64,000 nt of DNA, from positions 3,208 to 67,207 of the forward strand of contig DATDWM010000017.1 in the NCBI GenBank assembly GCA_036517375.1, read 5' to 3'. The DNA is from Minisyncoccota bacterium (GTDB taxonomy: Bacteria > Patescibacteriota > Minisyncoccia > Phycocordibacterales > UBA9973). The position numbers were made by a program, and so were the translations under genes. A model generated the notes under the pieces. The model did no database searches, was not told where the DNA came from, and worked only from the letters and a program-made list of their open reading frames with translations. Below are positions 2,393 to 31,230 of the stretch, piece after piece; the first letter of the stretch is position 1, and every line of letters begins with the position of its first letter.

Positions 2393-3253
2393 ATGAATTA
2401 TAATTTTGCATACTTTGGTGGTGAACCTTTATCAGTCCCAACACTGGATAAATTACACGAACAAGGATTTATTCCCAGGCTTATTATAAGCAACCCCGAT
2501 AAACCAAAAGGAAGAAATTTAGAAATTACCTCTCCTCCAACAGCCATCTGGGCAAAGGAACACAACATTCCACTTATTCAGCCAGAGAGTAATGCTAAAC
2601 TTCTTTCTACTTTTTCGAGTGAGGAATTCGGCTTGGCCGTACGTAGCGAGAAAAAATTGGAAAAAATGAAATATGATTTCTTCATAGTAGTCTCTTACGG
2701 AAAAATAATTCCTAAAGAAATTCTAGATTTACCTAAATTAGGAACTATCAACATCCATCCGTCACTGCTTCCTAAATATCGAGGTCCTTCCCCCATCGTT
2801 TCACCTGTTTTAAATGGTGACTCTCAAACAGGGGTAACTATTATACAAATAGACGAAGAAATGGATCATGGTCCAATACTGGCGCAAGAGGAAATAAGTC
2901 TTAAGGGGGACGAAAATATTGGAGATTTAGAAAAGTCTTTAGCTCTATTAGGGGGAGAATTATTAATAAAAATTATTCCGGAATTTGTTGCGGGCAAAAT
3001 TAAGCCCATAGAACAAGACCACAGTAAGGCCACCTTTTGCAAAAAGATTAAAAAGGAAGACGGATTAATAGATTTAAATGATGAGGGAGTTAAAAACTAT
3101 AATAAATTTAGAGCCTACGCCACTTGGCCTAGAACTTTCCTATTCCGCGACGGCAAAAGAGTTATAATTACCGACGCAGTCCTAGAAGACGGTAAATTCG
3201 TCATCAAAAAAGTTATTCCCGAAGGTGGAAAAGAAGTGGATTATAAGAATTAG
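2393..3253 (+). CDS. fmt: Methionyl-tRNA formyltransferase
   Basis: Formyl transferase N-domain (INIHPSLLPKYRGPSPI); follows def as in the conserved def-fmt pair. Confidence 0.85.
   Translation: MNYNFAYFGGEPLSVPTLDKLHEQGFIPRLIISNPDKPKGRNLEITSPPTAIWAKEHNIPLIQPESNAKLLSTFSSEEFGLAVRSEKKLEKMKYDFFIVVSYGKIIPKEILDLPKLGTINIHPSLLPKYRGPSPIVSPVLNGDSQTGVTIIQIDEEMDHGPILAQEEISLKGDENIGDLEKSLALLGGELLIKIIPEFVAGKIKPIEQDHSKATFCKKIKKEDGLIDLNDEGVKNYNKFRAYATWPRTFLFRDGKRVIITDAVLEDGKFVIKKVIPEGGKEVDYKN
2611..2658. repeat. 48-bp GC-rich intragenic element, copy A (inside fmt, in frame)
   Basis: tttttcgagtgaggaattcggcttggccgtacgtagcgagaaaaaatt; about 45/48 identical to 37648-37695. Confidence 0.65.
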
Positions 3254-3278
3254 AAGTATAATTACAAATATCTCAAGT

Positions 3279-3677
3279 TTAGTATTTAGAAGTAAAAGGA
3301 TTTCGCTTCGATAAACCTTTCATCATTTTTTTAACGCTGGCAGCGCCTCGCTTAAAGAGAGTCTGCTTGCGGTCTTTGCTCTTATTTATTTCTCGAAAGA
3401 GGCTGTCTTTAACACTATCAATAGCTTGATATAAGTCTTCTTCGTCGGTACCTCCATAGAACTTCTCCCCTTTAATATTGATCAAACAATCCGCATGAAA
3501 GATCTTGCCGGACTTGTGATGGTTGGTATTCTTTGCAACTTCGAAGTTTACGTGCACTTCTCCCCCCTTCTCTTCAATGGCCGAGAGTAATTTGTCGAGG
3601 TTGGTTACCCGCTTCATGACATAATCATGTATCGCAGGCGTCATCTCCATATTGGTGCTTTTTAAATTTATCTGCAT
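3279..3677 (-). CDS. hpf: Ribosome hibernation promoting factor / RaiA family
   Basis: MQINLKSTNMEMTPAIHDYV start and overall ~110-aa HPF-like fold signature. Confidence 0.75.
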   Translation of the reverse strand: MQINLKSTNMEMTPAIHDYVMKRVTNLDKLLSAIEEKGGEVHVNFEVAKNTNHHKSGKIFHADCLINIKGEKFYGGTDEEDLYQAIDSVKDSLFREINKSKDRKQTLFKRGAASVKKMMKGLSKRNPFTSKY

Positions 3678-10849: not shown

Positions 10850-11515
10850 ATGGTGAAAAAGATAATCTACTTTGTACGACACGGGGAAACAGATCGTAAT
10901 GCCGAAGGCATTAGGCAGGGAGCAGAAGGACCCCTGAGCGAAAAAGGTCGTACTCAAGCCTCTCAAACAGCCAAAAAATTTCCAAAATATAAAGGAAGGC
11001 CAGAAGTGATTATCGCGAGTCCTTATGAACGTACCAAGGAAACTGCAGCCATAATCGGCCAGGAATTATCCATGCAGGTGGAATATTCCGACCTTCTAGT
11101 GGAGCGTAAAAATCCTTCAGAGATAGTGGATCATAAAGGAGAAGAGCGAGAAGTCAGAACAATAGTGGACCGCATTGATAAAAGTTTCCATGATGACAAC
11201 CTTAGATATTCCGACGAAGAAAACTTCACTGACCTTAAAGAAAGGGCTCGAAAATTATTGGAATATATTAAATCTCGCCCTGAGGAGCACATAATCATGG
11301 TAACGCACGGCATCTTTTTAAAGATGGTAGTAAGTTATATGAACTACGGGGACAAATTAACTGCCTCTGAATACAACAAACTCAGCTTTTTTAACCCGAT
11401 CAACAACGCTGGAATGACTATAGTAAAATATATGTCTCATTGGTTTACTAAAGATGAATGGAAGCTCATCACCTGGAACGACAACCTGATTTTAGAAGAA
11501 AAACCAAAAAAATAG
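10850..11515 (+). CDS. Histidine phosphatase family protein (phosphoglycerate mutase-like)
   Basis: RHGETDRN catalytic motif near N-terminus. Confidence 0.7.
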   Translation: MVKKIIYFVRHGETDRNAEGIRQGAEGPLSEKGRTQASQTAKKFPKYKGRPEVIIASPYERTKETAAIIGQELSMQVEYSDLLVERKNPSEIVDHKGEEREVRTIVDRIDKSFHDDNLRYSDEENFTDLKERARKLLEYIKSRPEEHIIMVTHGIFLKMVVSYMNYGDKLTASEYNKLSFFNPINNAGMTIVKYMSHWFTKDEWKLITWNDNLILEEKPKK

Positions 11516-11525
11516 TATGTGCGTG

Positions 11526-11969
11526 CTAGCTAGGCGGATGATCCTTCATTCTTTTCTCTAGATGCACCAGCTTGTCTTCAATGCCCACTAAGGCGTCTTT
11601 GATACTAGAGATAGCGCCTACTTCATTCTTTACTTCGCCTTCTGTTTTTTCAGTCAGTCTTTTTTCACCGCGAAGCCCGGAGAGGATAAGCTCATTACCG
11701 ATGAAGCTCGAAATAAAAGCACCAGTAAAATATAAAATAGTACCTCCAACTAAAAGCGAAAAGGGTCCATCCCACCAAGGAGAGTTAAAAGCATCTGTAC
11801 TAAAATAGTCCTGGCCATAAGTTAAATAAGCATGAATCTGATCCGCGCTATGCCATATCCCCCGCCAGAACAACACAACGCCGATACCCACAATAAATGC
11901 GTAAGTCTTGGGTCGGTGGCTTAAAAATATAGTAATCCTCTGCTCCAATCTAGAAGTGATGCTTTTCAT
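11526..11969 (-). CDS. Hypothetical membrane protein
   Basis: Two predicted TM helices, C-terminal coiled-coil-like region; no recognisable family. Confidence 0.45.
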   Translation of the reverse strand: MKSITSRLEQRITIFLSHRPKTYAFIVGIGVVLFWRGIWHSADQIHAYLTYGQDYFSTDAFNSPWWDGPFSLLVGGTILYFTGAFISSFIGNELILSGLRGEKRLTEKTEGEVKNEVGAISSIKDALVGIEDKLVHLEKRMKDHPPS

Positions 11970-11992
11970 ATTACAAATATATCATACTTTTT

Positions 11993-12030
11993 AGAAATTA
12001 CTATAGTATGACTTGGCCGTAGTGGCACAG
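11993..12030. repeat. Left copy of 38-bp imperfect direct repeat flanking GC-rich insertion
   Basis: tagaaattactatagta exact 17-mer plus 16/21 following bases shared with 12996-13033; reverse complement encodes ...TTAKSYYSNF*. Confidence 0.7.
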
Positions 12031-12184
12031 ACCTACCGCTAGGTCTTGCCTAGCGGAGAAAAAATTTTTATCTTCACTTAAAATCAGATAGTTAAACGAA
12101 ACTCCCCGGATAAATCCGAGGAGAAATGAAAAGAGTTACGAACACCACCGAAGCGATAGTTCCGATTCACCAAGTCCTGAGGAC

Positions 12185-12811
12185 TTACTTACGGACACCA
12201 CCGAAGCGATAGCGCCGACGCCGCTGATAGGCGCACTGGTAAACGTACACCTCGCGCAAGTCGCCGTAGCGGTCGAACGAAGCGTAGCTAGCACTGCCGT
12301 TCTCCGAGAGATCCCACTGGCAACTATTAGGTCTCTCGGCCTTGTCGGCTCCGTTGACAGCACACTGCCAGTAAAAGTCCGGCACGAGATTTCGGAGTCC
12401 GTACTCGCGCGCGAGCTCCGTCGGTGTCGGATCGTAGTCGAGGTCGAAGAACCAGCCCTCGACCTCAACCACACCGTGCCCGGTCTTCGGTGCACGCTCG
12501 AGCACCTTGTCGTCAAGGTAACAGACAATCCGACCCATTGCGTCGAGTGCCTGTCGTTCCGTGCGGGTGTAATCCACCCGCGCCCGACGCGATATCATCT
12601 TCGCACGACGTTCCACGCGAGAGCGAAGACAGTTGAACATCTCCTCCACAAGCGCGTCACCTTCCTCTTCGAGCACCACCTGAACATCAGGGTGTGCGAG
12701 GGTTCCTCCGTCCTCACGGCACTTAGTCATGAACCAATCAGCTGCGCTGCTGGCCTGACCCATGTCCATGGGGACGAAGGAGACGGGGGCAACAACTTTT
12801 TTTTTAGTCAT
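12185..12811 (-). CDS. Hypothetical protein encoded in GC-rich foreign segment
   Basis: Sharp GC/codon-usage shift versus surroundings; AGGAG 9 nt upstream of ATG (MTKKKVVAPV); no recognisable domain. Confidence 0.5.
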   Translation of the reverse strand: MTKKKVVAPVSFVPMDMGQASSAADWFMTKCREDGGTLAHPDVQVVLEEEGDALVEEMFNCLRSRVERRAKMISRRARVDYTRTERQALDAMGRIVCYLDDKVLERAPKTGHGVVEVEGWFFDLDYDPTPTELAREYGLRNLVPDFYWQCAVNGADKAERPNSCQWDLSENGSASYASFDRYGDLREVYVYQCAYQRRRRYRFGGVRK

Positions 12812-12994
12812 CGGCGTCATCTCCTGGTTGTACCAATAGGGCTAAGTCCCTTTCGCCACAGCAGAAAAAATCCTTATCTAAAAGATACTCTCTGCTGTAG
12901 CGAATTTCACAAGTATTTAAAAGAGCATATATTTGCGCATTATACACCTTTTATGCTTAAAGGTCAATATTCTAAATACTCTTTATACTAAAGC

Positions 12995-14182
12995 CTAGAA
13001 ATTACTATAGTAGGATTTGGCGGTGGTGGTACAAATATCCTTATCGTTACCGCCCAATATCTTACAATATTCGAGCGCTTCTTTGTCGGAATGATAATAA
13101 GAAATTATTTCTTTAACTGCCCCGATCACGCAGTTGGTGATGTCATTTGGGTCAGTTGCCATCTCACACATTTCTTTTGTTTTTTGCTTCTCATGATGCG
13201 CTTGGTTGGCCACGTCTCGGCCCATGCTCTGGTTGCAGATATCCCGATACGGCTGCTCTACGGTGGCGCATAAGTCAAAGACTTTTTTATAATTAAATCC
13301 GGTAACCTGGAGCGCGTAAGAAGTCTGCCCTAGGTAACATTGACCTTTATATTTAGTATCCACCGCAGTACAAGGATATAGTGGCTCCGCGGGTTTCAAA
13401 TATTTTACTCCGTTTTTATGATCCGCTACATTGGTACTATCAATGATATTCTGCATGTACACCCCGCCATAACAAGACTCTTGCTCCCAGAAGCCAGTCA
13501 AGCTGTCGCACATTTTAAGTGAATCAAAAAGCTCATCTTTTAAAATTGCCATGATGCCGTGCCCTAGCCCATGCACGCAATTGTAATAATTAAAATTATA
13601 AGTATCTTTACCGGGAATATCAGCGCAGATAGTATTTAATTCTTTGGATAAATTTTCAAGCCCAATGTTCGCGATCATGCCTTCCATAATTCCATGATAA
13701 TATCCGCTCCAACAAAAAGAATCCCCGTTCGCAAATGCTTCGGAAATAGTTTTATAATTCCCTACCGCCTGCCTACCAATGACATGCATAAGCGGATGAC
13801 ACTGGGAGAGTATAGAGGAACTTTCCTGGGAACGTTTCTGTATATCAGCACTCGCAGTAGTCACGCCATAGTCTTTTACTAAAGTTTTATAATGATCTAC
13901 GTAACAGCCGTATAAAGCAGGCGAATTTTCACACAAATCAGCATCGTAAACATAGGGCACACCCTTCGCATTGATGGGATTATCCGCGAGGATCGATCTG
14001 CTTCTGGTTAAATTATTGGTCTCACCCATGGCTCGACTTAATACTTGGCTGTCCGGCTGGAAAACCATCGGGCTCGCATTCTCCTCCCCGGGATTTTGGA
14101 AATATTTCGCATATACTATTCCAAACCCTACCGCGAGCACCAGAAGAGCGATCAGTACTTTTACTATAGTTCCAGTTTTCAT
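12995..14182 (-). CDS. Secreted/anchored Cys-rich repeat protein, hypothetical
   Basis: N-terminal TM/signal segment; repeated Cys-Gly-His containing units (CVHGLGHG, CHPLMHVIG, CYGGVYMQ). Confidence 0.55.
   Translation of the reverse strand: MKTGTIVKVLIALLVLAVGFGIVYAKYFQNPGEENASPMVFQPDSQVLSRAMGETNNLTRSRSILADNPINAKGVPYVYDADLCENSPALYGCYVDHYKTLVKDYGVTTASADIQKRSQESSSILSQCHPLMHVIGRQAVGNYKTISEAFANGDSFCWSGYYHGIMEGMIANIGLENLSKELNTICADIPGKDTYNFNYYNCVHGLGHGIMAILKDELFDSLKMCDSLTGFWEQESCYGGVYMQNIIDSTNVADHKNGVKYLKPAEPLYPCTAVDTKYKGQCYLGQTSYALQVTGFNYKKVFDLCATVEQPYRDICNQSMGRDVANQAHHEKQKTKEMCEMATDPNDITNCVIGAVKEIISYYHSDKEALEYCKILGGNDKDICTTTAKSYYSNF
12996..13033. repeat. Right copy of 38-bp direct repeat (forms true 3' end of downstream gene)
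   Basis: Same 17-mer and similar extension; reverse complement encodes ...TTTAKSYYSNF*. Confidence 0.7.
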
Positions 14183-20389: not shown

Positions 20390-20488
20390 ATTTATATTGT
20401 ACTACTTTCTAACCCACGCCGCTATTTAAAAGTTCTAACCCCACGATAGGTATAAAAAATAACCATTATAAAATATGATTTAAAATTT

Positions 20489-20518
20489 GGCTCCGAACGT
20501 GGGAGGATGTTCGCAAGG
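20489..20518. repeat. Copy 2 of ~30-bp intergenic motif
   Basis: GGCTCCGAACGTGGGAGGATGTTCGCAAGG; contains CGAAC/GTTCG 5-bp inverted repeat. Confidence 0.5.
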
Positions 20519-20566
20519 CTATTATACAGGAAAATTAGGCTTAATTCCGTTATCCTGTATGGATTT

Positions 20567-20893
20567 TCACCCAAATACCAATACTTTATCCGAACTCTCC
20601 ACCATTTTGAGCAAGTCGGACATCGTGGAAACGGGGCAAACTTTGCTTTCTTCCTTTCCACGAACTTTAAGACAACTACCACAAGCATAAATCTCGCCTT
20701 TTAATTCTTTGAATTCCGACACCTTTTTTGAAATATCAAAATCTTTTGTATCGGGAATGATATCCAATTCTGAACCTTCGCTCATTAAAAAGATTTCTAC
20801 TTGATGTCCAGCTTTAAGCGAAGTAATTCCAAGGCGGAATGTATTCCATATATGTTCGGGTTTATTTGATTGTAAAATCATTCCTAGTTTCAT
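20567..20893 (-). CDS. DsrE/DsrF-like family protein
   Basis: ~108 aa, conserved Cys (ACGSC) and fold-typical hydrophobic pattern. Confidence 0.45.
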   Translation of the reverse strand: MKLGMILQSNKPEHIWNTFRLGITSLKAGHQVEIFLMSEGSELDIIPDTKDFDISKKVSEFKELKGEIYACGSCLKVRGKEESKVCPVSTMSDLLKMVESSDKVLVFG

Positions 20894-20899
20894 AGTAGC

Positions 20900-21142
20900 T
20901 TAACTTAAATCTTTCTTCTTTTCTTCAAACTCTTTCTTATCAATTTCGCCTTTAGCATATCTTTCCTTTAAAATATCCAGAGCCTTTTTACTACTGTCCA
21001 TCCCGTTTGCCTTGCTATTACGGACAAGCCAAACAATAAAATAAATAACCGCTACCCAAAATAAAAGCATCATAATTCCACCTCCGAACCAGCCCATCAT
21101 ATTACCCCAACTCCCAAAACCATCATATATTCCATACATCAT
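20900..21142 (-). CDS. SHOCT-domain membrane protein
   Basis: TM helix followed by [31 protein letters not shown]-like tail. Confidence 0.6.
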
Positions 21143-21203
21143 AGTTTTTATAGTTAATATTAATAATTTTTATTTCTATAACATTTTATCATAAGAAGTC
21201 ACT

Positions 21204-21232
21204 GGCTCAAACTTGAAATGATATTCGTAAGG
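21204..21232. repeat. Copy 3 of ~30-bp intergenic motif
   Basis: GGCTCAAACTTGAAATGATATTCGTAAGG. Confidence 0.45.
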
Positions 21233-21252
21233 TAATAATTAATAATCCATAA

Positions 21253-21918
21253 CTATTTTTCGTCAATAACTCCAATTGATTGCTCATACAGTTTTTCTGT
21301 CTGTGAAAACATCCAGTTGATAAATTTTAGTACTTTTGGATGAAACTCGCAAAGGTTGAAATTGAAGTTAGACAGCAATAGAATCAAGTGACTCCCAACC
21401 CAACTCGTAGAACCTCCTTCTAGGCTTAGAAGTACTTCTTTGTGCAAGCTTTCATCCTCTCCACGTGGGTAATCAACAGACCGATGAGATGCCCATTTGT
21501 TAGAAAGGACATTTACCATTCCTTCTTTATCCACAACTGAATCCCATATCTCTTTTAACTCTAAATCTTTTGGAGGATTTAATTTTAAGGATTTAATAAA
21601 AAAACTAGCACGCCTTAATTGACAAAGGTATGCTTGTACCTCGAACTTTATATTTGCTTGTGATTTTTTAATTTCTGCCCATTCTTCATCTGTATGAAAT
21701 CTGTTTACATATAATGATGGAACTCCTTTTTCTTCTAATTTCCTAAAATTGGCAAAATGATATTCTAAAGCCTCAGGTAGAACTCTTTGAAAAGTTAAGA
21801 TTTGAAAGTTTTTTAAGCCTTGCCATTTTTTCTTATCAGCAATATTTTTCTCACGCGATTGTACTGGAACAAAAGTACTTATAAGAATTCTTTTAGAAGA
21901 GTTGTTATTTTTTGACAT
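21253..21918 (-). CDS. Hypothetical protein, 3rd gene of NTPase operon
   Basis: Co-directional, 38-bp gap to upstream gene; no recognisable domain. Confidence 0.5.
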   Translation of the reverse strand: MSKNNNSSKRILISTFVPVQSREKNIADKKKWQGLKNFQILTFQRVLPEALEYHFANFRKLEEKGVPSLYVNRFHTDEEWAEIKKSQANIKFEVQAYLCQLRRASFFIKSLKLNPPKDLELKEIWDSVVDKEGMVNVLSNKWASHRSVDYPRGEDESLHKEVLLSLEGGSTSWVGSHLILLLSNFNFNLCEFHPKVLKFINWMFSQTEKLYEQSIGVIDEK

Positions 21919-21956
21919 ATAGATTTGAGTTTATTTTTTGATTCATAATATTTAGA

Positions 21957-23474
21957 CTATCTGGGGATTTTAGACACTTCAAAAATAAAACGTTTACGTC
22001 TTGTGTCTTCAGGCTTATACTCCCACCCTGTGCCATATCTATCTATTTTACTTTTATCTAGGTCTCCACAGGTTATAAGTCTTAATTTATTTTTTCTTAA
22101 AAATGTTTTAAGATACTTACCTTTAATAACTAAAACACTACCGTGGTCTGCCAAATGATGTTTATCCTCTCCATAGTTACTAACACTTGATACAAAGCCA
22201 TTTTGCCAATTTATAGTTTTAATCACTAATTCATTTTTACTAGTATAGTATTCCAGTGTCCCTTTGCGTTGTTTTAATTTAAGCTGTTCAACTATTTCTG
22301 GTGCAGGAAAGACAGGATTAAAAATATCGCCAAAATTTGTTTCTGAAATTATTCCGTAAGCAGGAAACAACTTACCATTTAGTTCTGTTCTATTGTGGTC
22401 AGAAACAAATAATTTCTTACTTTTATAAGCAAATATTGGAACTTCATCAATTAAACAGTTGTTACAACTATAAGAAGGCGGGAAAACTTCTTTTTTATCA
22501 TTTATTTTATTTAAATTTTCTGTCGTAAAACCGCTAAAAGTCTTACGGGAGAGCAATTTATCTTCAAAACGAATGCGTGTGTCCTCATATAACACAACCC
22601 ACGGCTGGTTTAAACCTGTTAGATTATAGATGTTCTTCCTCTTTAATTTGTCTTTCAACCAAAATTCTGTTTTTACCTTAATATTCTCGAATTTTATAAA
22701 ATCTGGTCTATCGGTAATCAAGTCCTCAACCCACACTGGTTCATAATTATAATTCTCCTGTAAAAACTCCCTCCAGCGAGATTCTTCGACTGGTAAGTTT
22801 TTTATACACCACATTAGAAAAGTTTGTATCCCGTGATAGGCACAATAATGCAATTTAGTTTTATAGGACTCATTTCTGGAGTAACCCCGATTCCACCTAG
22901 TAGGTACATCTTCCCAGTATTTTTTACCCTTTCGATAACCAAGCACCTTCATATTCTGCAACAATTTCTTGTAACCTTTTTTGCCCGCATATTTAAATGT
23001 ATTGCATATGTTATCAAGCTTATATTTGTAGTCACCCCCTCCTAGGGTGTACTCTACGAAATGTTCAGAACTATATCGATACCAATCTTGCTGGGTATCG
23101 GGAGTAAACTGTGTGGGGGTAACTAATTTAAGAGACTCCGCAAATATATTCTTAGCAGAAGATTTAAAATTACTTAGATTTTCCAAGATATTTTTTGATA
23201 AATAAGCAATCTTGAAATGGTTACAGCGTTTTGCAGTTTTTAAGATACTTTCTTTGATGGAAAGTATTCTTTCGGGAGCCTTGTAGCTAAGACGAAATAA
23301 AACTTTTAGAGAGTTCTCGACTATATCTAGGTTCTCAGAAAGTAGATTTTTCCTTAGTTCATTAATGGTTTTTTCATTAATTAGAGCATTTTCATATAGT
23401 GCTTTTTCTGCACTACCTCTCCATTTAAAAGGGGCAACACCGAGATATTTAGATATAAATTGTAAGGATTTCAT
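21957..23474 (-). CDS. Hypothetical protein, 2nd gene of NTPase operon
   Basis: Starts 4 bp after stop of 1578-aa gene; no recognisable domain. Confidence 0.5.
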   Translation of the reverse strand: MKSLQFISKYLGVAPFKWRGSAEKALYENALINEKTINELRKNLLSENLDIVENSLKVLFRLSYKAPERILSIKESILKTAKRCNHFKIAYLSKNILENLSNFKSSAKNIFAESLKLVTPTQFTPDTQQDWYRYSSEHFVEYTLGGGDYKYKLDNICNTFKYAGKKGYKKLLQNMKVLGYRKGKKYWEDVPTRWNRGYSRNESYKTKLHYCAYHGIQTFLMWCIKNLPVEESRWREFLQENYNYEPVWVEDLITDRPDFIKFENIKVKTEFWLKDKLKRKNIYNLTGLNQPWVVLYEDTRIRFEDKLLSRKTFSGFTTENLNKINDKKEVFPPSYSCNNCLIDEVPIFAYKSKKLFVSDHNRTELNGKLFPAYGIISETNFGDIFNPVFPAPEIVEQLKLKQRKGTLEYYTSKNELVIKTINWQNGFVSSVSNYGEDKHHLADHGSVLVIKGKYLKTFLRKNKLRLITCGDLDKSKIDRYGTGWEYKPEDTRRKRFIFEVSKIPR

Positions 23475-23478
23475 AGTA

Positions 23479-26400
23479 TTATGCTTTTGTTAAAGATAAC
23501 CGCATAGATTCTTCGACCGTTTCTTTTAGAGGATGGAAAGCATACTTCTTCAATTCAGGAAAAAAAGAATCTATAACGTCTGAGGTTCTGACTAATAAAT
23601 AATTCAAATAATAACTACTTTCTGATGACTTATAAATAGAGAGACGGATAACTTTTTTTAGAAATTCCTTTTTATTTTCAAATTCCATTTGTGCTAGCTT
23701 ATTAACAAGCTCTGGAAGATTGTATGGATATTCTTGGTTGTTGCAAAAATCCAAAATGTCCCCCTTAATCTCCTTAAGGTAAGCTTTGTCCTTATTTTTT
23801 ACAGACAAATCAAGTAGTGAACATAGAATATTGTAGGTAAGAAATTCAACGTTATTTTCTTTACACCACAGTTTTACCTTGCTAATAATTTTAAGGTCAG
23901 AGTTTGAAACAATCTCTAGTATTAAACCATCAATTTTATATTTTTTATCTTCCTTAATAAAAGAATCTAGTAATCCAGTTATCTTTTTCATAGACCTGTT
24001 CCGTGCAAAAGATTTAGCCTGTTTAATGACTGCTAGCGGTATTAACTCTGAGTTAGGGGTAGTTGGTATCACTGAATATCCGTCAAGTTCTAATTGGGCG
24101 ATATACTTCTTTATATCCCCATACTCTCTTTTTAAATCATTCTTTTGTTTTATAAACGTTACTAATTCATTTAATAGGGTTAATCTTGCCCCAACATATA
24201 CATATCTACGCAAGTAAATACAATATCTACTTAAAAATAATCTGGCGTTAGGAATATCATTATTTTTTAGAGAGTGGTCAATCAAGGCGTAGTAAATAGC
24301 TTTGATATTTGGTTGTTCTCGGTCAGTCTCTTCATCAAATCTTACTAAACCTAGCAATGGCATTAGTTCTGGAGCAATAGTTTGATATTTATACCTATCA
24401 AGACTAGCCAGAATTACTTTTTTTAACCCCTCATTCAAATTAACTTCTCCTTTGTTTGTCAGTTCTATTAGATAATCAAGACCTAATTCATAATTTGAAT
24501 ATGCAACTGATTCTATAAAACCTAATTTATAATACCAGCTACCCTCAACAACACTACTGATTTTATCGATATATTTAAGAATGGTTTCAAAATCATCTTT
24601 TTTATTTTGAGTTCTAAGACAGTCAATTAAATTCAAAATTCTCAAATCCTCTTTTGCCCATAAGCCACGAGAATATTTAAGAGAATGCTTATAGATATTC
24701 TCTGCTGATTCTCTATAACCCTTACTATTTACTGTTCTTGCTAATTCCTTCAGACCATCACTTTTTGCAAAATTATCTTGCTTTTCTTTGGTTTTAAATT
24801 CAAGTATCTTTTTTTGGTATAACACTACCTTTGATACTAAGGCGGGGGTGATTGGCAACAGTTCATCGAAGGTGGTCTCTAATAAACTTTGATTTTTCTC
24901 TAAGATTGTATTTTTGAAAACCGATTCGACGACATCAACAAAAGATTCTAATTTTTTAGGAAAATACTTAGCTACAGTATTCAAACAAATCCCTACGAAT
25001 GAAGTTGCATTTTGATAGTAGACAAAAGCTGTTTTCTCAAAAGGAGATTCTCTTAGTTGTTTATACTCACTAACTTGTGAAATTTCCTTTTTAAATACAC
25101 TAAGACTTTCCATAATAAAATGGTTTAATCTTTTCCAGTCCATTTTTTTATTTTTTACAAAAAGAATATTACGGTAAAGCAATATGTAGGTTGAAACTAT
25201 GTTAGCGAAAGCATCATTCTCATAGTCCTTAAAATGTTCTTTATGATATTTTTTCTGGGCATCAATGAGAAATTCCTTCGGATTAAAATTTTTAGTAACA
25301 ATACTTAACAAAGCGGTTCTTCGGAGGAATAACCCCTTGCCGTTTATTCCCCAGTTAGAATACATATCTCTGTGATAAGGTGGCTCAAAGTCAACTCCAG
25401 AAATTAATTTAGATATGGAAGATTTTGATTCGCTTGTGTTTAACAAATATGAGACTTCGGCTATATCTAGTTTCTGATTTATATATCGGTCGTTGATTAA
25501 ATATTTGAATAACTGATACTGTTTAATAAGAGTTTTGAGTTTCTTTTTGGCAGTAGTATCTTTTTTCTCTATATAAAGATACGCATAGGTTATGAGCTGT
25601 ATTGCCTTGGATTGCCTATTTATAAAATGTAACACTGCCTTTTTTTCTTTTGGGTATTGAACTCTATTCAACTTTATTAACATACTAGCTCGGAATCCCA
25701 CTGTATAAGGTTTAGGCTCTTTAAAACGAATATTTTCAATATATCTTACAGCTCCATCGTATCTACCTAAGTTAATACAAGCTTCTAAATACTCTACGAT
25801 ATTATCCCAGTACATATCCGTATTACCATTTTCCATCATTTTTCTATCCCAAAGAATATCTTTATTAAAAGAAATACGAGCTAATCCATCTTCTAAAAAT
25901 CGAAGGGCTAAATTTTTAGAAGGACTGTCTTCTCTGGTATATAAAAAATTACCCAATCTAATTCGCTTCATTACCCATTCTCTTAAATTGTACAGAGATT
26001 GGTTTTGTAATACATCAAGTTCAGCCTCAACTTCTTTAAGAAGGTTCGGTGTACCGATACTGCTTTTCAGAAAAGTATCGTCATCGGACATCCGAGCAGG
26101 ACTTAAATTACTAATCTTAACTGAATATTTAATAAAATTCTCTAAATCATTTTTTGCATCAAAGTATTTTGTAAAATAATGTAAAGATTCAATTTTTGAA
26201 CCATAATCTAGTTTAGAATCAAAAATTGTTTGAATGAAATTATTTTGAATTAACTTCTTTGTAATTTGCTTAGTAAACGGGTCAGAACTGCCAATTACCC
26301 GCAAATGATTAGTTAAGTATTTTTTCGGATAGGCTAATTTGAGATTACCTTTAGTTGAATAGAATCTTATTATTTTTCGGTTATATTCTTTCTGAACACT

Positions 26401-28215
26401 TGTTAGTTTATTACGAATGAATCTTCTAAAACTATCGTGGTATGGTTCGATATATCCTCCACGCAAGTTCACGAAGGGACTTATTTTTTCGTTAAGGTCA
26501 TTAAAATTCTCTAACTTAATTTTCGCTACCTTATAGAGTGTGTCTCTTTGGATTTCAGCAAAATGAAAACTTAGACAACCAAGACAGTGTTTCTGTCTTG
26601 TGTTCAGGCTGTCCCAGATGGGTTTATACCAATCGAAGACTTCTTTATAATCTTCTTTGCTGTCTATAATGCTGTCATAGTCTTTTCTTGAAATCTTTTT
26701 TAACTTTTGTGTTAAATAAAAAATAGAAATAGCCAACCCTTTCGTTTTTTTAGATATTTTTCTTAATTGGTCAATAGTTAGATTAATTTCCGCATTTTTA
26801 AAATATTCTTTTATTTCATTCTCGCTAAATGACAAACTAATAGAAATCTTTCTAGAAGTTTTGTCTGGAAGGTTTTTTATCTGTTGCGGAAGATATTCTT
26901 TTGTCCAAGTACTTAACAAAAAGACTACGCCAGCATATTGAATTGAAGGTATGGCATTTAGGATAGACTTATCTTTGTAGTTGTCAGTTTCTACTTGGTC
27001 TAAAGCGTCTACAATTATTACAATTTTTTTATCCTTACGTTTTAATGCTGATTCGCTTACTTGATTTAATGTTTTCTCAAACATTTTATTTATAAATTCT
27101 TCATTATCCTTAAGGCTGACAGTTTCTTTTGTAAGTCCCAAGTCAAAAAAGCGTTGAATCAGGTCAACCTTAAACCACATACTACTTAAACGTTCTTTCT
27201 CATAATTTAAATTCGAGTCAATTTTCTCAAAAGGTCTAATACGACAAAGGTAGGGTAAAAAATCAGCGTTGGTTTGTGTAAGCTTTGAGAGTAAGACTGT
27301 TTTCCCCGAACCAGAGGGGGCAAAAAGGAAAACGAAACCACCTTTCTTTTTTTGTTTATTTACAGCTTTAAGTATCTCAACTTCAACCGCTTTTCTTTGA
27401 ATGTAATTTTTAGGAGTATTTATCTCGTGAACTAAACTCGTTTTAATAATTTCAATCAATCCAAGTACATCCGCCTTTCTAATGATAGTTTCTTTTTGAG
27501 TAAATTTTTTAAAGGTTCTACTTATAAAAGCATCAACTCTATCATTATCAGAAATGCCAAGAAGCCCTAATTCTTTTTTGAGTTTGGATTCTATGCCGTC
27601 ATTGTCTGTGGAAATTTGAAATTCAAAAGATTTTATAAAAGCTTCTAGTTCGCCACGCTTTAGACGAGTTTTAGTGAAATTAGATTTAATGTTTAAAAGT
27701 TCCGTTTTATATTTATCACTAAATTTACTCCAAGTTATCTTTTTCTGATTCAACTTTTTTATATCACTAAGAAACTTCTTCAAGTCTGACCCAAGTGGTT
27801 TGTTGCTAGCAAGAATTAACTTAACTTTATTCTTTTGTCCTTTATGAAATCTCCAAGCTTTAAGGAATTTAAAAATTACAGTTCCTTCGTACTTAGAATT
27901 TTTCTTAGCACTTTTTTTCTTGGCAGTTTCCTTGGATTCCCATAGACCACTATAAGTCCAACTACTGCTTACTACATCAGTGTACTTAAGTTGAATGACT
28001 TCAATGGACTTATCTTCAAAAAATCGGGTTATGTCCTCTATACGTCTTTTTGCTCCTCCTTTCCTGTCTGGTTTGATTTCGACATAAGAAAGCTTACTAT
28101 CGGTCTTTATTAATTTTGTAAACTCTAGAGCAGAAAAAACCTTTTCGAAGTACTGAGAAGTATCTTCGTTTCGATTTAGTATATGACTTTTGGATGTCTT
28201 CTTTTTTCCTTTCAT
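23479..28215 (-). CDS. Giant (1578 aa) P-loop NTPase, STAND/AVAST-like candidate defence protein
   Basis: Walker A GGFVFLFAPSGSGKTVLLSK (~aa 297), Walker B KIVIIVDALDQVE (~aa 400), >1100-aa helical C-terminal region, N-terminal region with PD..QLK (PD-(D/E)xK-like) pattern. Confidence 0.6.
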   Translation of the reverse strand: MKGKKKTSKSHILNRNEDTSQYFEKVFSALEFTKLIKTDSKLSYVEIKPDRKGGAKRRIEDITRFFEDKSIEVIQLKYTDVVSSSWTYSGLWESKETAKKKSAKKNSKYEGTVIFKFLKAWRFHKGQKNKVKLILASNKPLGSDLKKFLSDIKKLNQKKITWSKFSDKYKTELLNIKSNFTKTRLKRGELEAFIKSFEFQISTDNDGIESKLKKELGLLGISDNDRVDAFISRTFKKFTQKETIIRKADVLGLIEIIKTSLVHEINTPKNYIQRKAVEVEILKAVNKQKKKGGFVFLFAPSGSGKTVLLSKLTQTNADFLPYLCRIRPFEKIDSNLNYEKERLSSMWFKVDLIQRFFDLGLTKETVSLKDNEEFINKMFEKTLNQVSESALKRKDKKIVIIVDALDQVETDNYKDKSILNAIPSIQYAGVVFLLSTWTKEYLPQQIKNLPDKTSRKISISLSFSENEIKEYFKNAEINLTIDQLRKISKKTKGLAISIFYLTQKLKKISRKDYDSIIDSKEDYKEVFDWYKPIWDSLNTRQKHCLGCLSFHFAEIQRDTLYKVAKIKLENFNDLNEKISPFVNLRGGYIEPYHDSFRRFIRNKLTSVQKEYNRKIIRFYSTKGNLKLAYPKKYLTNHLRVIGSSDPFTKQITKKLIQNNFIQTIFDSKLDYGSKIESLHYFTKYFDAKNDLENFIKYSVKISNLSPARMSDDDTFLKSSIGTPNLLKEVEAELDVLQNQSLYNLREWVMKRIRLGNFLYTREDSPSKNLALRFLEDGLARISFNKDILWDRKMMENGNTDMYWDNIVEYLEACINLGRYDGAVRYIENIRFKEPKPYTVGFRASMLIKLNRVQYPKEKKAVLHFINRQSKAIQLITYAYLYIEKKDTTAKKKLKTLIKQYQLFKYLINDRYINQKLDIAEVSYLLNTSESKSSISKLISGVDFEPPYHRDMYSNWGINGKGLFLRRTALLSIVTKNFNPKEFLIDAQKKYHKEHFKDYENDAFANIVSTYILLYRNILFVKNKKMDWKRLNHFIMESLSVFKKEISQVSEYKQLRESPFEKTAFVYYQNATSFVGICLNTVAKYFPKKLESFVDVVESVFKNTILEKNQSLLETTFDELLPITPALVSKVVLYQKKILEFKTKEKQDNFAKSDGLKELARTVNSKGYRESAENIYKHSLKYSRGLWAKEDLRILNLIDCLRTQNKKDDFETILKYIDKISSVVEGSWYYKLGFIESVAYSNYELGLDYLIELTNKGEVNLNEGLKKVILASLDRYKYQTIAPELMPLLGLVRFDEETDREQPNIKAIYYALIDHSLKNNDIPNARLFLSRYCIYLRRYVYVGARLTLLNELVTFIKQKNDLKREYGDIKKYIAQLELDGYSVIPTTPNSELIPLAVIKQAKSFARNRSMKKITGLLDSFIKEDKKYKIDGLILEIVSNSDLKIISKVKLWCKENNVEFLTYNILCSLLDLSVKNKDKAYLKEIKGDILDFCNNQEYPYNLPELVNKLAQMEFENKKEFLKKVIRLSIYKSSESSYYLNYLLVRTSDVIDSFFPELKKYAFHPLKETVEESMRLSLTKA

Positions 28216-28396
28216 TTATAGGCACATATTAACATTTTGCCCAGAAAAGAACCAAAGATAAACATCTGGGCTTTAGAGTTTCCAACATTCATCCAGAATG
28301 CCTATTTAATGGGGTAAAATGCCCCCTTCCTCTTTGGTATGTGAGGTTTTGAACAATGGTATAATTAGAGTAGCTTTTGAAAAATAAGCTCATTAA

Positions 28397-28831
28397 ATGC
28401 CAGCAGGAAGACCAACAGAATACAGTGAAAACATACTCTCTAAATCAAGAGAGTATGTTGATTCTTGTGTGGATGAGCTAGAAGACCGACCAAAAACAGT
28501 TGGGACAAAATCCACTTCCTACGAGAGGGTTATCAAGGTTAATTTACCTACAATAGAAGGTCTGGCGAGCCATTTAGGGCTTGCTAGAAGCACTTTATAC
28601 GAGTGGAAGGACAAATACACTGAATTTTCGGACATCTTAGAGATACTTTTAGCACATCAGGCAACTGCTCTTATTAATAATGGTTTGTCAGGAGACTATA
28701 ATGCGACCATAGCTAAGCTTCTTCTAATGAAGCACGGCTATAAGGAAGATGCCCGAATATACGAGAGAATCACTGGGAACGAAATTATCTTCAAGGATAT
28801 GTCTGTGGTAGGAGTTAGTGAGTCCGATTAA
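28397..28831 (+). CDS. HTH DNA-binding protein resembling phage terminase small subunit
   Basis: N-terminal GRPTEY and HTH LPTIEGLASHLGLARSTLYEW pattern typical of TerS-like proteins. Confidence 0.45.
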   Translation: MPAGRPTEYSENILSKSREYVDSCVDELEDRPKTVGTKSTSYERVIKVNLPTIEGLASHLGLARSTLYEWKDKYTEFSDILEILLAHQATALINNGLSGDYNATIAKLLLMKHGYKEDARIYERITGNEIIFKDMSVVGVSESD

Positions 28832-28840
28832 AGAAAGTAT

Positions 28841-29305
28841 TTATTCTGTGAAATATTGGCTATGTTTTTCCTTAAAATCACTATCATTAATAGAACCAAT
28901 ATCTGTGCAACCACCATCAACGTCTGAAAAAGCCCCTGCTCCACACTGGAAAATTACTTTGTTTTCATATCCGTCTCTCATCATTGAATAAAAAAATTCA
29001 TCTGTATTTCTACTCAAATTTTTGTTTACAATTCTGTAAACTTCTGTATAAACATAGCATTTATTTTTAACTGAATTGAAATGGTTAGTTGTATATACAG
29101 AATAATTATTATCCAACTTACTTTTTTCCTCCTTGTCTACTTCTATGGCTTTTTGTGAACAATTGTAAGCATATTCTCCATACTTAGTGTCAGAAATTAT
29201 ACCTACCTTACTTTCATTGTTACTTTTTATTACATAGGTAAATATCAGTATCAATAAAACGATAACCCCAATTTTAAACCAGTTTTCTTTTAAGAATTTT
29301 GTCAT
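28841..29305 (-). CDS. Secreted/membrane-anchored hypothetical protein
   Basis: N-terminal TM/signal; several Cys. Confidence 0.5.
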   Translation of the reverse strand: MTKFLKENWFKIGVIVLLILIFTYVIKSNNESKVGIISDTKYGEYAYNCSQKAIEVDKEEKSKLDNNYSVYTTNHFNSVKNKCYVYTEVYRIVNKNLSRNTDEFFYSMMRDGYENKVIFQCGAGAFSDVDGGCTDIGSINDSDFKEKHSQYFTE

Positions 29306-29308
29306 ATG

Positions 29309-30172
29309 TTAGTTGCAATAAACTGTGTTACCGATAAAATTACAAATTGTTGTTGGGTGAGGTGGTGTTGAATAATAAGCATCGGGTTCACACGCTTGAT
29401 AATATTTGTTCATAAGCGGAGTAGATTTTATTGCCAAATCAGCTCCCTTAGAAGCTAGTTCGCTTGACTCTTGTGAACCAGCATCAGCTTCTTCCATACG
29501 AGCCAAGTTGTCGTCTAGTTGTTTTTGTATACTGTCATAAGCTTTCTTGGCACTTACGCATTCTGGGCTATTGTGTATTTTATCTTCGGCTTCTTGTTTA
29601 GCATTGGCTTGGTCTTTAAGCTGTTGATTTAAAATATCATATGCAGAGGGTTGAGAAGATGTTGGACTAGGTTGTCCGCAGGAAGCTTCACCTATGGCTG
29701 GGCAGTAAAAAGGATTCTCAACAGAACAATTGGAAATATTGTAAGATTTTCCATTGCATACTCTTATATTATCCAGTTCACTTTGAGTGTAACAACCAGA
29801 AGCGTTGTCGGGGCTACAGAAAAACTTTTTACCAAGAGATGGACAGGTGTCTTTTATTTGTTGACCATTGCACATCACTATATTTTCTTGGGTGGGTATA
29901 CTCTTTTTAACTGGGGCTGTTACTTTAGGAGCAGGTGTAGTTGTTTTGGGTTGTTGATTTTTTAAATCATCAATTTGTTTTTGTAGTTCTTGAATTTGCA
30001 CTGTCTGGTCTGGTGCTGGTTTAGTATCCGTTACTTGCACTTGTGGTGCAGGAACTTCTTTTTTATGGAATATGCTCCAGCTAAAAGGATTCCACCAAGA
30101 GGCAAAAGTAATTTGTGGAATCAAAATGATTGCGACCAAGATAACAGAAACTATATTTAACTTATTTTTCAT
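29309..30172 (-). CDS. Secreted Cys-rich protein with Pro/Gln-rich linker (start set at MKNKLNIV signal peptide)
   Basis: Signal-peptide-like segment begins at internal Met; upstream 50 codons of ORF-track call overlie a structured GC-rich non-coding-looking element. Confidence 0.55.
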   Translation of the reverse strand: MKNKLNIVSVILVAIILIPQITFASWWNPFSWSIFHKKEVPAPQVQVTDTKPAPDQTVQIQELQKQIDDLKNQQPKTTTPAPKVTAPVKKSIPTQENIVMCNGQQIKDTCPSLGKKFFCSPDNASGCYTQSELDNIRVCNGKSYNISNCSVENPFYCPAIGEASCGQPSPTSSQPSAYDILNQQLKDQANAKQEAEDKIHNSPECVSAKKAYDSIQKQLDDNLARMEEADAGSQESSELASKGADLAIKSTPLMNKYYQACEPDAYYSTPPHPTTICNFIGNTVYCN

Positions 30173-30363
30173 AAAATAAAAAGCTAGCTGATAAGAGCTA
30201 GCGTGGAAAACACAGAACCCCACGCCAGCTAGGTCTTGCGACCCCATATCAGTTTCCCGATATAGCCCTTGGAAGAGTTGCTGAACGCAGGGTTCAGTAT
30301 CTTCCAAGGGTCTTTTGACCATATCCTAAAGGTGTCTTTAGGGGTTAGGTCGCATATTAAGTT
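30173..30363 (-). promoter_or_regulatory. Highly structured GC-rich leader/intergenic RNA element ending in terminator-like hairpin + U-run
   Basis: Nested inverted repeats (CCCTTGGAAG...CTTCCAAGGG 10 bp; CTGAAC/GTTCAG; CCTAAAG/CTTTAGG; CGTGG/CCACG; GCTAGC x2) and on minus strand GCTAGCucuuaucaGCTAGC followed by UUUUUAUUUU right before ATG. Confidence 0.4.
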
Positions 30364-30723
30364 TTACTTATTCATCGTATCATTATATAGCTCTTTTGTT
30401 AATCTAACTCTAGCTAAGATGTGGAGCTTTAATGCAGTAGAAAAGTAATAAAGACGTGGATTTTTTATTACACGCTTAGCTTCAAGTGGTGTTATCTTGA
30501 TAATTACACCATTAGCACGATACCAAAATCTTCTATCTTTTCTAATAACCTCCGCATTGTATTGAAAAAGATTACGACCGTGAATCCTCGCAAGGTTGCC
30601 TTCAATGAGTCTAATGCTCAATTTAACTATTTCCATAAAATCTCGGCTTAAACTAAAAAAATCTTTCCCACACGGAAAAAGATTTACGACTATTATCTCT
30701 CCCTTGTGGGTTGGATTTAGCAC
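30364..30723 (-). CDS. Hypothetical protein
   Basis: 119-aa ORF, no recognisable motif. Confidence 0.4.
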   Translation of the reverse strand: MLNPTHKGEIIVVNLFPCGKDFFSLSRDFMEIVKLSIRLIEGNLARIHGRNLFQYNAEVIRKDRRFWYRANGVIIKITPLEAKRVIKNPRLYYFSTALKLHILARVRLTKELYNDTMNK

Positions 30724-31202
30724 CTTACTTTCGCAGGTCGCTGGGCGGATTAAAATGAGCCAATTCTCTACTCGCCACTCTCGATAGACTTATTTAGTTG
30801 TGAGATAAGTTTATATAAGGCAAAAAATAAAAGCAAGTATACACCCAAATTTCAAGGGATTTTCGGACATCATAAGAGAGTTTTTACACGTTTTTAGAAT
30901 CCTAAAATAACCATATTTTATAGCTTATATTAGCCGTTTAGCCCTATGCTATAATAGTGGTAGAAGTTCCTTAAATAGCTCTGACTACAACTCCTGCCAC
31001 CAAGCAGTCAAAAAACTGGAATAAACTGGTTCAGTCAGATACCGTTTTGGATAATACTGTGAAATTGGTGATGATATGTGAGGAGGTCAACCTCTTAAAA
31101 ATGATTTAAGAAAATGCGTCAGCCAATTGTGCAAGATTAGACCGAGATAACAAAAAATACTTATGGTGTTTTGTTATTTCAGTCTAGTTTTGGAACAAAA
31201 AC

Positions 31203-31230
31203 AAACACCCTATGTTGGTGTTTTTATTTT
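31203..31230 (+). terminator. Terminator-like hairpin + T-run in non-coding stretch
   Basis: AAACACC-ctatgtt-GGTGTTT followed by TTATTTT. Confidence 0.3.

Follow-up and report, generated by a model that had tools for sequence, protein, structure and literature searches.

The GC-rich insert that follows the gene for a 395-aa Cys-rich protein belongs to a known kind of element, in decayed form. We consider it probable, at about three chances in four, that it is a decayed module of a diversity-generating retroelement (DGR) of the Patescibacteria type, inserted at the end of the 395-aa gene and between two genes that are adjacent in relatives. Its cargo is a DGR target gene, the cassette around this gene is truncated, the relatives with the same gene order lack the insert, and high GC content is found throughout the family of the target gene. 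In a DGR, RNA of the template repeat (TR) gives rise to cDNA in which adenines are copied with errors, and this cDNA overwrites the variable region (VR); in intact cassettes, the accessory gene avd and the reverse transcriptase (RT) follow the TR. The whole stretch of DNA that was analysed, 64 kb in length, is called the window below, and Table 1 lists the features in and around the insert.

Table 1. Features of the insert and its flanking genes, in window coordinates.
Feature	Position	Strand	Description
147-aa host gene	11526..11969	-	From ORF list; in L014 and on the P0008 contig, the orthologues come directly after the 395-aa homologue
Left repeat copy	11991..12029	-	12 codons (CATTAKSYYSNF) and TAA, preceded by in-frame stops; ancestral position
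Unassigned downstream edge, 55 nt	12030..12084	-	BLAST against all loci gave chance-level matches only
Conserved post-TR element	12085..12135	-	Linker CTCTTTTCATTTCT, then hairpin 12102-12123, then T-run
TR stub	12136..12165	-	Last ~26-30 nt of TR; 27/30 match with the VR end
Post-VR remnant	12166..12184	-	Fused to TR stub at microhomology AAT(A/C)GGAAC
Variable-protein (DGR target) gene	12185..12811	-	208 codons; GC 0.59, GC3 0.68; VR at about 12189-12289
5' UTR	12812..12938	-	RBS and hairpin (arms 12852-12875 and 12881-12904); nucleotide homology with L015 starts at 12932
Cassette promoter, sigma-70-type	12939..12967	-	TTGACC-17-TATAAT, 11/12 match
Unassigned spacer, 27 nt, between 395-aa stop and cassette promoter	12968..12994	-	No significant match elsewhere
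Right repeat copy	12995..13033	-	CTTTAKSYYSNF and TAG; 3' end now used by the 395-aa gene
395-aa Cys-rich host gene	12995..14182	-	From ORF list; no Pfam domain

The original prediction of a GC-rich segment bracketed by direct repeats, both encoding the same gene 3' end, holds in both parts. The GC content in 200-nt sliding windows is 0.56-0.63 over positions 12100-12800 compared with 0.40 for the whole window; the insert core has about 59% GC, and no 500-nt bin of the window outside the insert reaches 0.50. The imperfect direct repeat of 38 nt lies at 11992-12029 (the left coordinate being corrected here to 11992) and at 12996-13033, with 33 of 38 positions identical, a start-to-start spacing of 1,004 nt, and an insert of 1,004 bp between the copies. 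The exact 17-mer within it, TAGAAATTACTATAGTA, occurs at two sites in the 64-kb window, both in the repeat copies, where the chance expectation is 0.01 matches, and two copies were reached in none of 100 shuffles. On the minus strand the peptides of both copies share the ending TTAKSYYSNF followed by a stop. When the stop codon is included, six differences separate the copies, five of which fall at third codon positions. The 21-nt part of the repeat has the variant TGTGCCACTACGGCCAAGTCA in the left copy, the other variant being TGTACCACCACCGCCAAATCC. Longer repeats were considered and rejected: downstream of the stop, the score of a suggestive alignment was reached by 977 of 2000 shuffles, and upstream of the TGT codon the protein level offered only an 'LG' match, together with in-frame stops.

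The 395-aa ORF has its true end in the right copy; the left copy had been taken for a displaced duplicate of this gene's 3' end. From the left copy to the ATG of the 147-aa gene there are 21 nt, the same spacing as in relatives. In two syntenic relatives (L014 and the contig of P0008, both at 67-68% protein identity), only 20-21 nt separate the stop codon of the 395-aa homologue from the 147-aa homologue, and the GC-rich gene is absent between them. Therefore the left copy marks the gene end at its ancestral position while the 395-aa gene uses the other copy, and the insertion is real. The uninterrupted gene that was expected in relatives is found in both, and the suggestion that relatives might carry the GC-rich gene at this site as ancestral sequence does not hold for these two. 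The left copy also includes a weak promoter-like site, GTGCCA-17-TATAGT (9/12 match). As for the host gene itself, the 395-aa protein has 1,226 homologues, which make up a large Patescibacteria family; NCBI labels it as hypothetical and assigns it to a Candidatus Paceibacterota MAG, whose proteins include HEY4503178.1 and HEY4503179.1 (locus tags VJC14_01970 and VJC14_01975), and a Pfam search with it gave no match. When the genome contigs were scanned with this protein, only two distant loci were obtained, where the downstream synteny is not conserved.

An abrupt change of GC bounded by repeats has the classic look of a mis-join, as would result from a chimeric assembly in which a GC-rich fragment of another organism was joined at a short shared repeat. 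We regard this as extremely improbable. The contigs compared, among them L001-L003 and L030-L036, stem from assemblies of several samples in Logan, ENA and JGI, and the source samples include SRR2090153 and SRR3989344; all examined contigs are 100% identical to the window in the insert region, and this identity, obtained with different assemblers and samples, extends over both junctions. A near-identical strain (L004) has the same structure, with 99.98% identity over 10 kb. Since several assemblies and samples give contigs that match at 100%, the insert is no assembly chimera as far as the assemblies show, and the artefact that had been named as a possible refutation falls away. It also argues against a chimera that the AT-rich promoter, UTR and terminator, all within the repeats, belong to the cassette, and that homologues at about 20 independent loci have the same GC contrast.

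The sole gene in the insert is the DGR target; it had been described as a 208-aa ORF with a good RBS and no recognisable family. The ORF (12185-12820, minus strand) gives 211 aa from its first ATG and 208 aa from the second (12811), and the RBS-plus-start motif conserved in homologues favours the second. No Pfam match was obtained for the variable protein or for 71 relatives, and a sequence profile search of PDB also gave no match. The length of 208 aa and the lack of a Pfam family therefore stand, but the gene is recognisable as that of a DGR variable protein accompanied by a truncated TR. The protein is 40-64% identical to P0002-P0006, and a profile search of its family gave 1,168 clusters. 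It is homologous to proteins with a demonstrated C-terminal VR of about 100 nt, which the homologues carry at the 3' end of the gene, and the VR in the window corresponds to the last ~33 codons of the 208-codon gene. In a structure model built from 72 sequences, the protein is predicted to have an N-terminal helical hairpin followed by a C-terminal C-type-lectin-like domain.

The homologues show what a complete cassette of this family looks like. Full VR/TR pairs with adenine-specific mismatches were found at 10 homologous loci. For example, 19 of 20 mismatches in L009, all 13 in L006 and 12 of 13 in L011 are at TR adenines, and the adenine pattern is also present in L015, L020, L022 and L025-L028, with avd and RT in most. 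An RT adjoins the homologues at L006, L009, L020 and L025-L028; according to Pfam, bAvd and RVT_1 adjoin P0005, and RVT_1 adjoins P0003. In intact relatives, the VR is followed by about 320-450 nt, the TR, avd on the opposite strand, and then the RT. A full TR in the genome of the window would be expected to end in ...CGCTTCGGTGGTGT(C/T)CGTAA.

The window can be compared with one of these cassettes, L015, nucleotide by nucleotide. Window positions 12932..12158 align to the 5' UTR, the gene and 27 nt of post-VR sequence of L015, and 12166..12085 align to the TR 3' end and the post-TR region with 83.5% identity; at the microhomology joint, about 455 nt of the L015 cassette are absent from the window. 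The 5' UTR motifs are common to the closest cassettes (L005/L015 and L008), and other cassettes have a similar promoter at the same place. The TR stub has three mismatches with the VR, two of them at stub adenines (AAC in the stub and CGC in the VR). In an alignment of 11 loci, the post-TR element has its counterpart behind the TR of 10 DGR loci. Its hairpin is well conserved: 95.9% of the cells pair, compensatory changes occur at 5 of 9 pairs, the score was matched by none of 500 shuffles, and the slid controls reached at most 64%. This element, which was predicted as a terminator-like site, likely serves as the terminator of the variable-protein gene. The stretch 12030-12056 contains, as judged by eye, two overlapping small hairpins, GACCTA-CCGC-TAGGTC and CCGCTAGG-CAAGA-CCTAGCGG. 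An Rfam scan of 11500-13500 at E<=1 gave a chance-level sRNA match only.

We account for this layout by one deletion at the 8-9-nt microhomology, which would have brought the final ~30 nt of the TR next to the post-VR region; avd, RT and everything past the post-TR hairpin are missing as well. The remnant is a self-contained transcription unit with its own promoter, a structured 5' UTR and the 208-codon gene. A tblastn search with the RTs of L009 and L006 found no RT in the 64-kb window, and neither Avd nor a full TR had a match there. Since the TR body, avd and RT are gone, the VR can no longer be rewritten from its own locus and is frozen. A second DGR elsewhere in the genome could rewrite the VR in trans, the visible DNA being 64 kb only. 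If a complete DGR acted in this way, the VR would be a live remote target and the local TR stub would be irrelevant, which agrees with the intact 3' boundary of the VR and with other family members (L018/L019, L021 and L024) that likewise have no TR or RT within several kb. We find this very unlikely, given that the VR is identical in every examined contig from several samples, that most of the post-VR region is deleted, and that neither RT nor TR is present in the 64-kb window.

DGRs of bacteria of the candidate phyla radiation (CPR, Patescibacteria) have been described as the 'CPR set' by Wu et al. 2018 (PMC5758913) and as DGR clade 2 by Roux et al. 2021 (PMC8144416). The present family shares with them homologous target proteins, a VR at the 3' end, mismatches specific to TR adenines, avd and RT; the cassettes are likewise cell-encoded and non-viral, and the C-terminal variable domain is predicted to be C-type-lectin-like. 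One close relative lies directly after rplJ-rplL, which echoes the ribosomal-gene association of these DGRs (PMC5758913). The window copy differs in that RT and avd are absent and the TR is reduced to a stub of 26-30 nt, which makes it a relic and not a working DGR. The target-protein family also differs in having no Pfam model, and the target gene exceeds both its own RT and the host by about 20 GC points, while whole-cassette GC comparisons (PMC5758913) leave target versus RT aside.

The high GC content is a trait of the target gene in this family. The homologues have GC of 0.57-0.67 in hosts of GC 0.35-0.49 and lie beside AT-rich RT genes, and about 20 loci agree in this contrast of a target gene with the RT of the cassette to which it belongs. 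Since all examined homologues are GC-rich in an AT-rich context, a high GC content does not point to a GC-rich donor. The contrast between target and RT may merit a dedicated survey. It is also conceivable, but in our view quite unlikely, that in this Patescibacteria DGR clade a process linked to retrohoming, and not ancestry, keeps the target gene GC-rich and adenine-poor throughout, candidate processes being selection against mutable adenines outside the VR and biased repair of cDNA tracts, and that promoter-to-terminator modules spread without an integrase, guided by a conserved piece of a host-gene end.

For the route of entry, we favour homology-guided recombination with no dedicated integrase. 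The module would have come in by recombination within the final 12 codons of the 395-aa gene. The incoming DNA would have borne its own copy of these codons, and so the 395-aa gene would have stayed intact, while the resident end would have been left 1 kb downstream beside the 147-aa gene. A circular fragment may have entered by one crossover, or homologous recombination at the gene end may have been combined with illegitimate joining at the far end. Against this route, the donor or element must have possessed a 395-family gene end beforehand, no empty site was found at high identity, and neither a circular nor a donor form was seen. No 395- or 147-aa homologue was found near any of 20 other family loci. 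The viral contigs contained no member of the variable-protein family and no left-copy 38-mer, and no mobile-element copy was found. There was also no empty site in the same population, where every examined contig with the 147-aa gene carries the insert; strains closer than 68% protein identity all have the insertion already.

[quoted passage not shown] These loci resemble the window in having a homologous anchor in a conserved gene, new cargo, and a resident 3' end pushed downstream as a fragment, with no dedicated recombinase needed. They differ in that a variable toxin tip is displaced there and the process is repeated into arrays, whereas in the window a conserved end of 12 codons was displaced in a single event by cargo unrelated to the host gene.

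The original prediction had read the repeats as the footprint of site-specific integration at a gene 3' end, with no integrase left inside. The insertion stands, and so does the lack of any integrase or recombinase gene in the insert, but several routes agree with the data and an integrase is just one of them; nine other cassettes have no flanking repeats. In the integrase route, an integrative element with a tyrosine-type integrase would have found its attB in the conserved 3' end of the 395-aa gene, with a replacement end in its attP; the integrase and most of the element would have been deleted later, leaving attL and attR around the DGR remnant. We take this as possible though doubtful. 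The flanking repeats do reconstitute the gene and relatives do have an empty site, if only at 67-68% protein identity; the perfect 17-nt block contains a 10-bp palindrome (TACTATAGTA) and adjoins the diverged block, much like a recombinase core; and internal deletions in the cassette are evident. Prophage e14 in icd of E. coli, which has an integrase gene of its own and a duplication of 163 bp, reconstitutes the gene end in the same manner, and similar elements also carry a replacement 3' end (PMC6379469). There too the insertion is inside the 3' end of a protein gene, the alternative end has mostly silent differences, and a short pseudo-copy of the original end remains on the far side; the window differs in its duplication of 38 bp, its insert of 1 kb, and the lack of an integrase, excisionase or other mobility gene.

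Against an integrase, flanking repeats at the nine other family cassettes (six complete and three orphan), which lie at unrelated sites, are at chance level, and the family is absent from viral contigs. A crude regular expression for the tyrosine-recombinase box, a weak test, had no match among the window ORFs. The only recombinase seen, a large serine recombinase, is encoded at 32176-33876 in another island, some 19 kb from the insert. Large serine recombinases exchange at a 2-bp core and not at 17 bp of identity. Any likeness of the repeat to an Xer/dif site is, as we take it, a loose resemblance only, and an integron attC core-site match was absent on inspection by eye.

Duplication in place is the other alternative to homology-guided entry, either as a long target duplication that later diverged or as a tandem 395-aa paralogue that was replaced by the cassette except for its last 12 codons. 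The predominance of third-position differences (five of six) is what synonymous drift of a functional copy, or two coding paralogues, would leave, and, with only 67-68% identity to the nearest insert-free relatives, an old insertion is conceivable. We nevertheless judge it unlikely: tandem 395-family genes were found in none of the four relatives inspected, and no second 395-aa paralogue was found in the 64-kb window. A transposase target duplication was rejected, a 38-nt imperfect repeat being too long; to our knowledge, a staggered-cut duplication of 38 nt is far longer than the target duplications of transposases.

An apparent GC-rich alien gene of no known family thus becomes interpretable as a frozen DGR variable protein with a decayed retroelement, in which the breakpoints can still be read: a deletion at a microhomology, the stub of the TR, and a terminator hairpin that was kept. 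The duplicated gene end is a clear natural example of cargo that was inserted with the host gene left intact. In the AT-rich genomes of Patescibacteria, a GC jump can mark a DGR target gene and not a recent transfer from a GC-rich donor, which is useful to know when these genomes are scanned for islands. Closer relatives could show how DGR modules move in this uncultivated phylum.

The insert, the 1,004-bp segment between the two repeat copies, is the relic of a decayed module of a diversity-generating retroelement (DGR). Its GC-rich part coincides with a single minus-strand ORF, for which the original prediction gave 208 aa and no recognisable family. The ORF is 211 aa long, or 208 aa when counted from the start conserved in homologues (12811), and the way it differs from its closest homologue (51, 46 and 90 substitutions at codon positions 1, 2 and 3) indicates that it is coding. 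No Pfam match was obtained for the 211-aa protein, but the context of its homologues identifies a DGR target. A word-indexed search with this protein returned only five close homologues, and a profile search returned 1,168 clusters, with proteins about 205 aa long. Genes for bAvd and RVT_1 adjoin the gene of homologue P0005, and one for RVT_1 adjoins that of P0003. At the three compared loci L009, L006 and L011, the final ~100 nt of the target gene are repeated 420-450 nt downstream with 80-87% identity, and the mismatches fall at adenines of the downstream copy (19/20, 13/13 and 12/13, respectively). Adenine-specific mismatches are the hallmark of DGRs, in which the variable region (VR) receives a copy of the template repeat (TR) with such errors. 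A metagenome scan gave seven more loci with an adenine-biased VR/TR pair and the arrangement target gene, TR, accessory gene (avd, opposite strand) and reverse transcriptase (RT); avd and RT are both present at five of them, while the remaining two contigs stop inside avd. The window gene is placed by homology with the DGR target proteins.

Some features of the family can be added. In this DGR clade (L020, L025-L028, L009, L015, L022), avd is located between TR and RT but runs antiparallel to them and to the target gene, with its 3' end directly against the hairpin that follows the TR. Three orphan target genes (L018/L019, L021, L024) lack TR, avd and RT over the next 2-3.4 kb downstream, and each closes with its own strong terminator, so that RT-less copies are common in the family.

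The decay can be traced against L015, the closest intact cassette, which lies directly after rplJ-rplL and matches the window in two nucleotide blocks. The first (window 12932..12158) covers the L015 5'UTR, the gene and the first 27 nt past its stop; the second (12166..12085, 83.5% identity) covers the last ~30 nt of the TR and downstream sequence. The window lacks the ~455 nt that separate the blocks in L015, which comprise the spacer, the TR's first ~70 nt and the rest of the post-VR sequence, and the deletion joint sits at the microhomology AAT(A/C)GGAAC. Because this deletion fused the TR stub behind the gene, there is a second repeat which the original prediction did not mention (27/30 matches; downstream AAC vs VR CGC). 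The linker and hairpin after the stub are conserved post-TR in ten other DGRs. In this hairpin 95.9% of the cells pair, with compensatory changes in 5 of 9 pairs; none of 500 shuffles reached the observed pairing and slid controls gave at most 64%. Together with its T-run, the hairpin also scores as a terminator. Neither avd nor RT was found beyond 12085 or in the whole 64 kb, and the VR is identical across all contigs examined. The window locus, which lacks both RT and avd and retains just a stub of the TR, is not a functional DGR. It keeps the promoter, the conserved 5'UTR, the RBS, the gene and the terminator; judged from these elements, the gene should still be expressible, and the means of rewriting its VR in cis are lost.

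The 5'UTR motifs of the window cassette are shared with its two closest relatives, L005 (~3230-3290) and L008 (~300-380): GTTCTTTTAAATA..., followed by CGCCATAGC ... GCTGTGGCGAA, which form a hairpin with variable loops. The UTR hairpin of more distant cassettes is different. This hairpin could act as a regulatory RNA element. In L005 and L015, which come from the same organism, a complete DGR of the family immediately follows rplJ-rplL, a position in agreement with the several CPR DGRs interleaved with ribosomal protein genes (PMC5758913).

The GC-rich core was confirmed, at 0.56-0.63 across 12100-12800 compared with 0.40 for the window. Its reading as a sign of foreign origin fails, since the homologues examined are likewise GC-rich (0.57-0.67 in flanks of 0.35-0.49), the sole exception being L029 (0.45 vs 0.32), a contig of 1 kb whose match is weak and partial. 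GC3 is 0.63-0.82 for target genes, compared with 0.31-0.33 for the L009 and L006 RT genes and 0.32-0.49 for the window's neighbouring host genes. Outside the VR, third-position A and T average 0.11 and 0.17 in 13 target genes; the corresponding values for six RT genes are 0.26 and 0.30. GC climbs from 0.55 to 0.69 along the target gene toward the VR. The target genes (window 12185-12811; L005-L011, L015-L028) exceed their hosts and their own cassettes' RT genes by about 20 GC points. As the target proteins are mutually only 40-65% identical, there was ample time for drift to host composition; high GC is therefore a maintained property of the target-gene family and not a donor signature.

The predicted insertion and displaced gene end are borne out by two syntenic relatives, whose 395-aa proteins are 67-68% identical to the window's. 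Both conserve the order RelA/SpoT, 395-aa homologue, 145/147-aa gene, His_Phos_1, CTP_transf_like and PMM, and in both the 395-aa homologue's stop is followed after 20-21 nt by the 145/147-aa gene start, with nothing intervening. In the window, the left-copy stop (11991-11993) and the start codon of the 147-aa gene (ATG, 11969) are 21 nt apart; with this same spacing, the left copy occupies the ancestral gene-end position. As far as assemblies can show, a chimera is excluded: all contigs examined (several samples; Logan, ENA and JGI assemblies) are 100% identical to the window here and span one or both junctions, and a strain 99.98% identical over 10 kb has the identical insert structure. No empty-site variant was seen among the contigs examined. 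At NCBI the proteins are hypothetical proteins of a Candidatus Paceibacterota MAG.

The flanking direct repeat is real (33/38 identical, spacing 1,004 nt), although its left coordinate had been given one base off. It consists of a 17-nt perfect block and an adjoining 21-nt block with five differences; a sixth lies in the stop codon, and third codon positions account for 5 of the 6. The exact 17-mer TAGAAATTACTATAGTA occurs in the 64 kb only in the two copies (0.01 matches expected), and no significant extension of the repeat was found on the downstream or upstream side. Both copies encode the same gene 3' end on the minus strand, as predicted: the right copy, CTTTAKSYYSNF and TAG, is the actual 3' end of the 395-aa ORF, and the left copy reads CATTAKSYYSNF and TAA, with in-frame stops preceding the coding remnant. 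Inside the 17-nt block, the 10-bp perfect palindrome TACTATAGTA codes Tyr-Tyr-Ser-Asn. Twelve nt of this block, TCATACTATAGT, also occur at the gene end in L012, a family member of 57% identity, which makes the 395-family gene end unusually conserved at the DNA level. The motif AGAAAAAAT(T/C)(T/C)TTATCT recurs just inside both insert edges and directly after the right copy (15/17 and 12/13 matches); in AT-rich sequence such a recurrence may be chance. A weak promoter-like site lies within the displaced gene end, some 30 nt ahead of the 147-aa gene. The 395-aa and 147-aa genes would now be separated transcriptionally by the cassette terminator, and the retained left fragment may preserve transcription of the 147-aa gene.

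Features of the insert, its flanks and the separate island, in window positions
Feature	Position	Strand	Remark
147-aa host gene	11526-11969	-	
Repeat copies	11992-12029; 12996-13033		
Palindrome	11997-12006; 13001-13010		
Weak promoter-like site	12000-12028	-	GTGCCA-17-TATAGT, 9/12
Recurring motif	12057-12073; 12863-12879; 13033-13045		
Second repeat	12136-12165; 12189-12218		
Target ORF	12185-12820	-	
Shared 5'UTR motifs	12852-12904		
Cassette promoter	12967-12939	-	TTGACC-17-TATAAT, 11/12 match
395-aa Cys-rich gene	12995-14182	-	
1,578-aa P-loop/NPHP3_N-like protein	23479-28215	-	
gp3-like small terminase/HTH protein	28397-28831	+	
566-aa large serine recombinase	32176-33876	+	gene end overlaps tRNA-Asn
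tRNA-Asn	33864-33936	-	tRNA-Ala next

How the module arrived is less certain. The original prediction proposed integrase-type integration; the insertion, the displaced end and the lack of a recombinase in the insert stand, while the mechanism, the nature of the cargo and the meaning of the GC content were not established in the form it proposed. Three routes fit the footprint: circular crossover, homology-facilitated illegitimate recombination, and in-place duplication or paralogy. Under the first, a single crossover, by integrase or host recombination, would join the chromosome and a circular DNA with a copy of the gene end. The integrase-catalysed insertion of e14 at icd is a precedent (PMC6379469) and its gene-end replacement resembles the window footprint, but the window insert has no integrase, and the integrase version appears unlikely. 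The second would pair an illegitimate joint at codon -12 with homologous recombination at the other end, within the 395-aa gene, the donor being a related lineage whose own 395-aa gene is closely followed by the module. Such recombination has been proposed for orphaned 3' ends in T6SS/Rhs loci (PMC5361080, PMC3240628), and the window locus likewise leaves an orphaned end, as in these C-terminal displacement loci. The third is an old in-place duplication or tandem paralogue that later diverged. The third-position bias does not separate the three: two coding lineages would produce it, and so would synonymous drift of the functional copy. The 395-aa gene remains intact after insertion. The insert edges (55 nt and 27 nt) gave no match allowing assignment; there are no flanking repeats at six complete and three orphan cassettes of the family, no 395- or 147-aa homologues near its other cassettes, and no cassette was found on viral contigs. 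We favour, with modest confidence, a homology-guided event without a dedicated integrase.

A separate AT-rich island lies at 20400-34200 (GC 0.29-0.33 at 21.5-28 kb) and has the appearance of an integrated element; its edges share a 17/18 match, which is at the margin of chance (1/100 shuffles).

DGRs are abundant in CPR bacteria, where they form a clade that is mostly cell-encoded and confined to Patescibacteria (PMC8144416), and their target proteins in CPR are mostly unannotated (PMC5758913). For this decayed module, the GC contrast within the cassette and the duplication of the gene end are the parts worth following.
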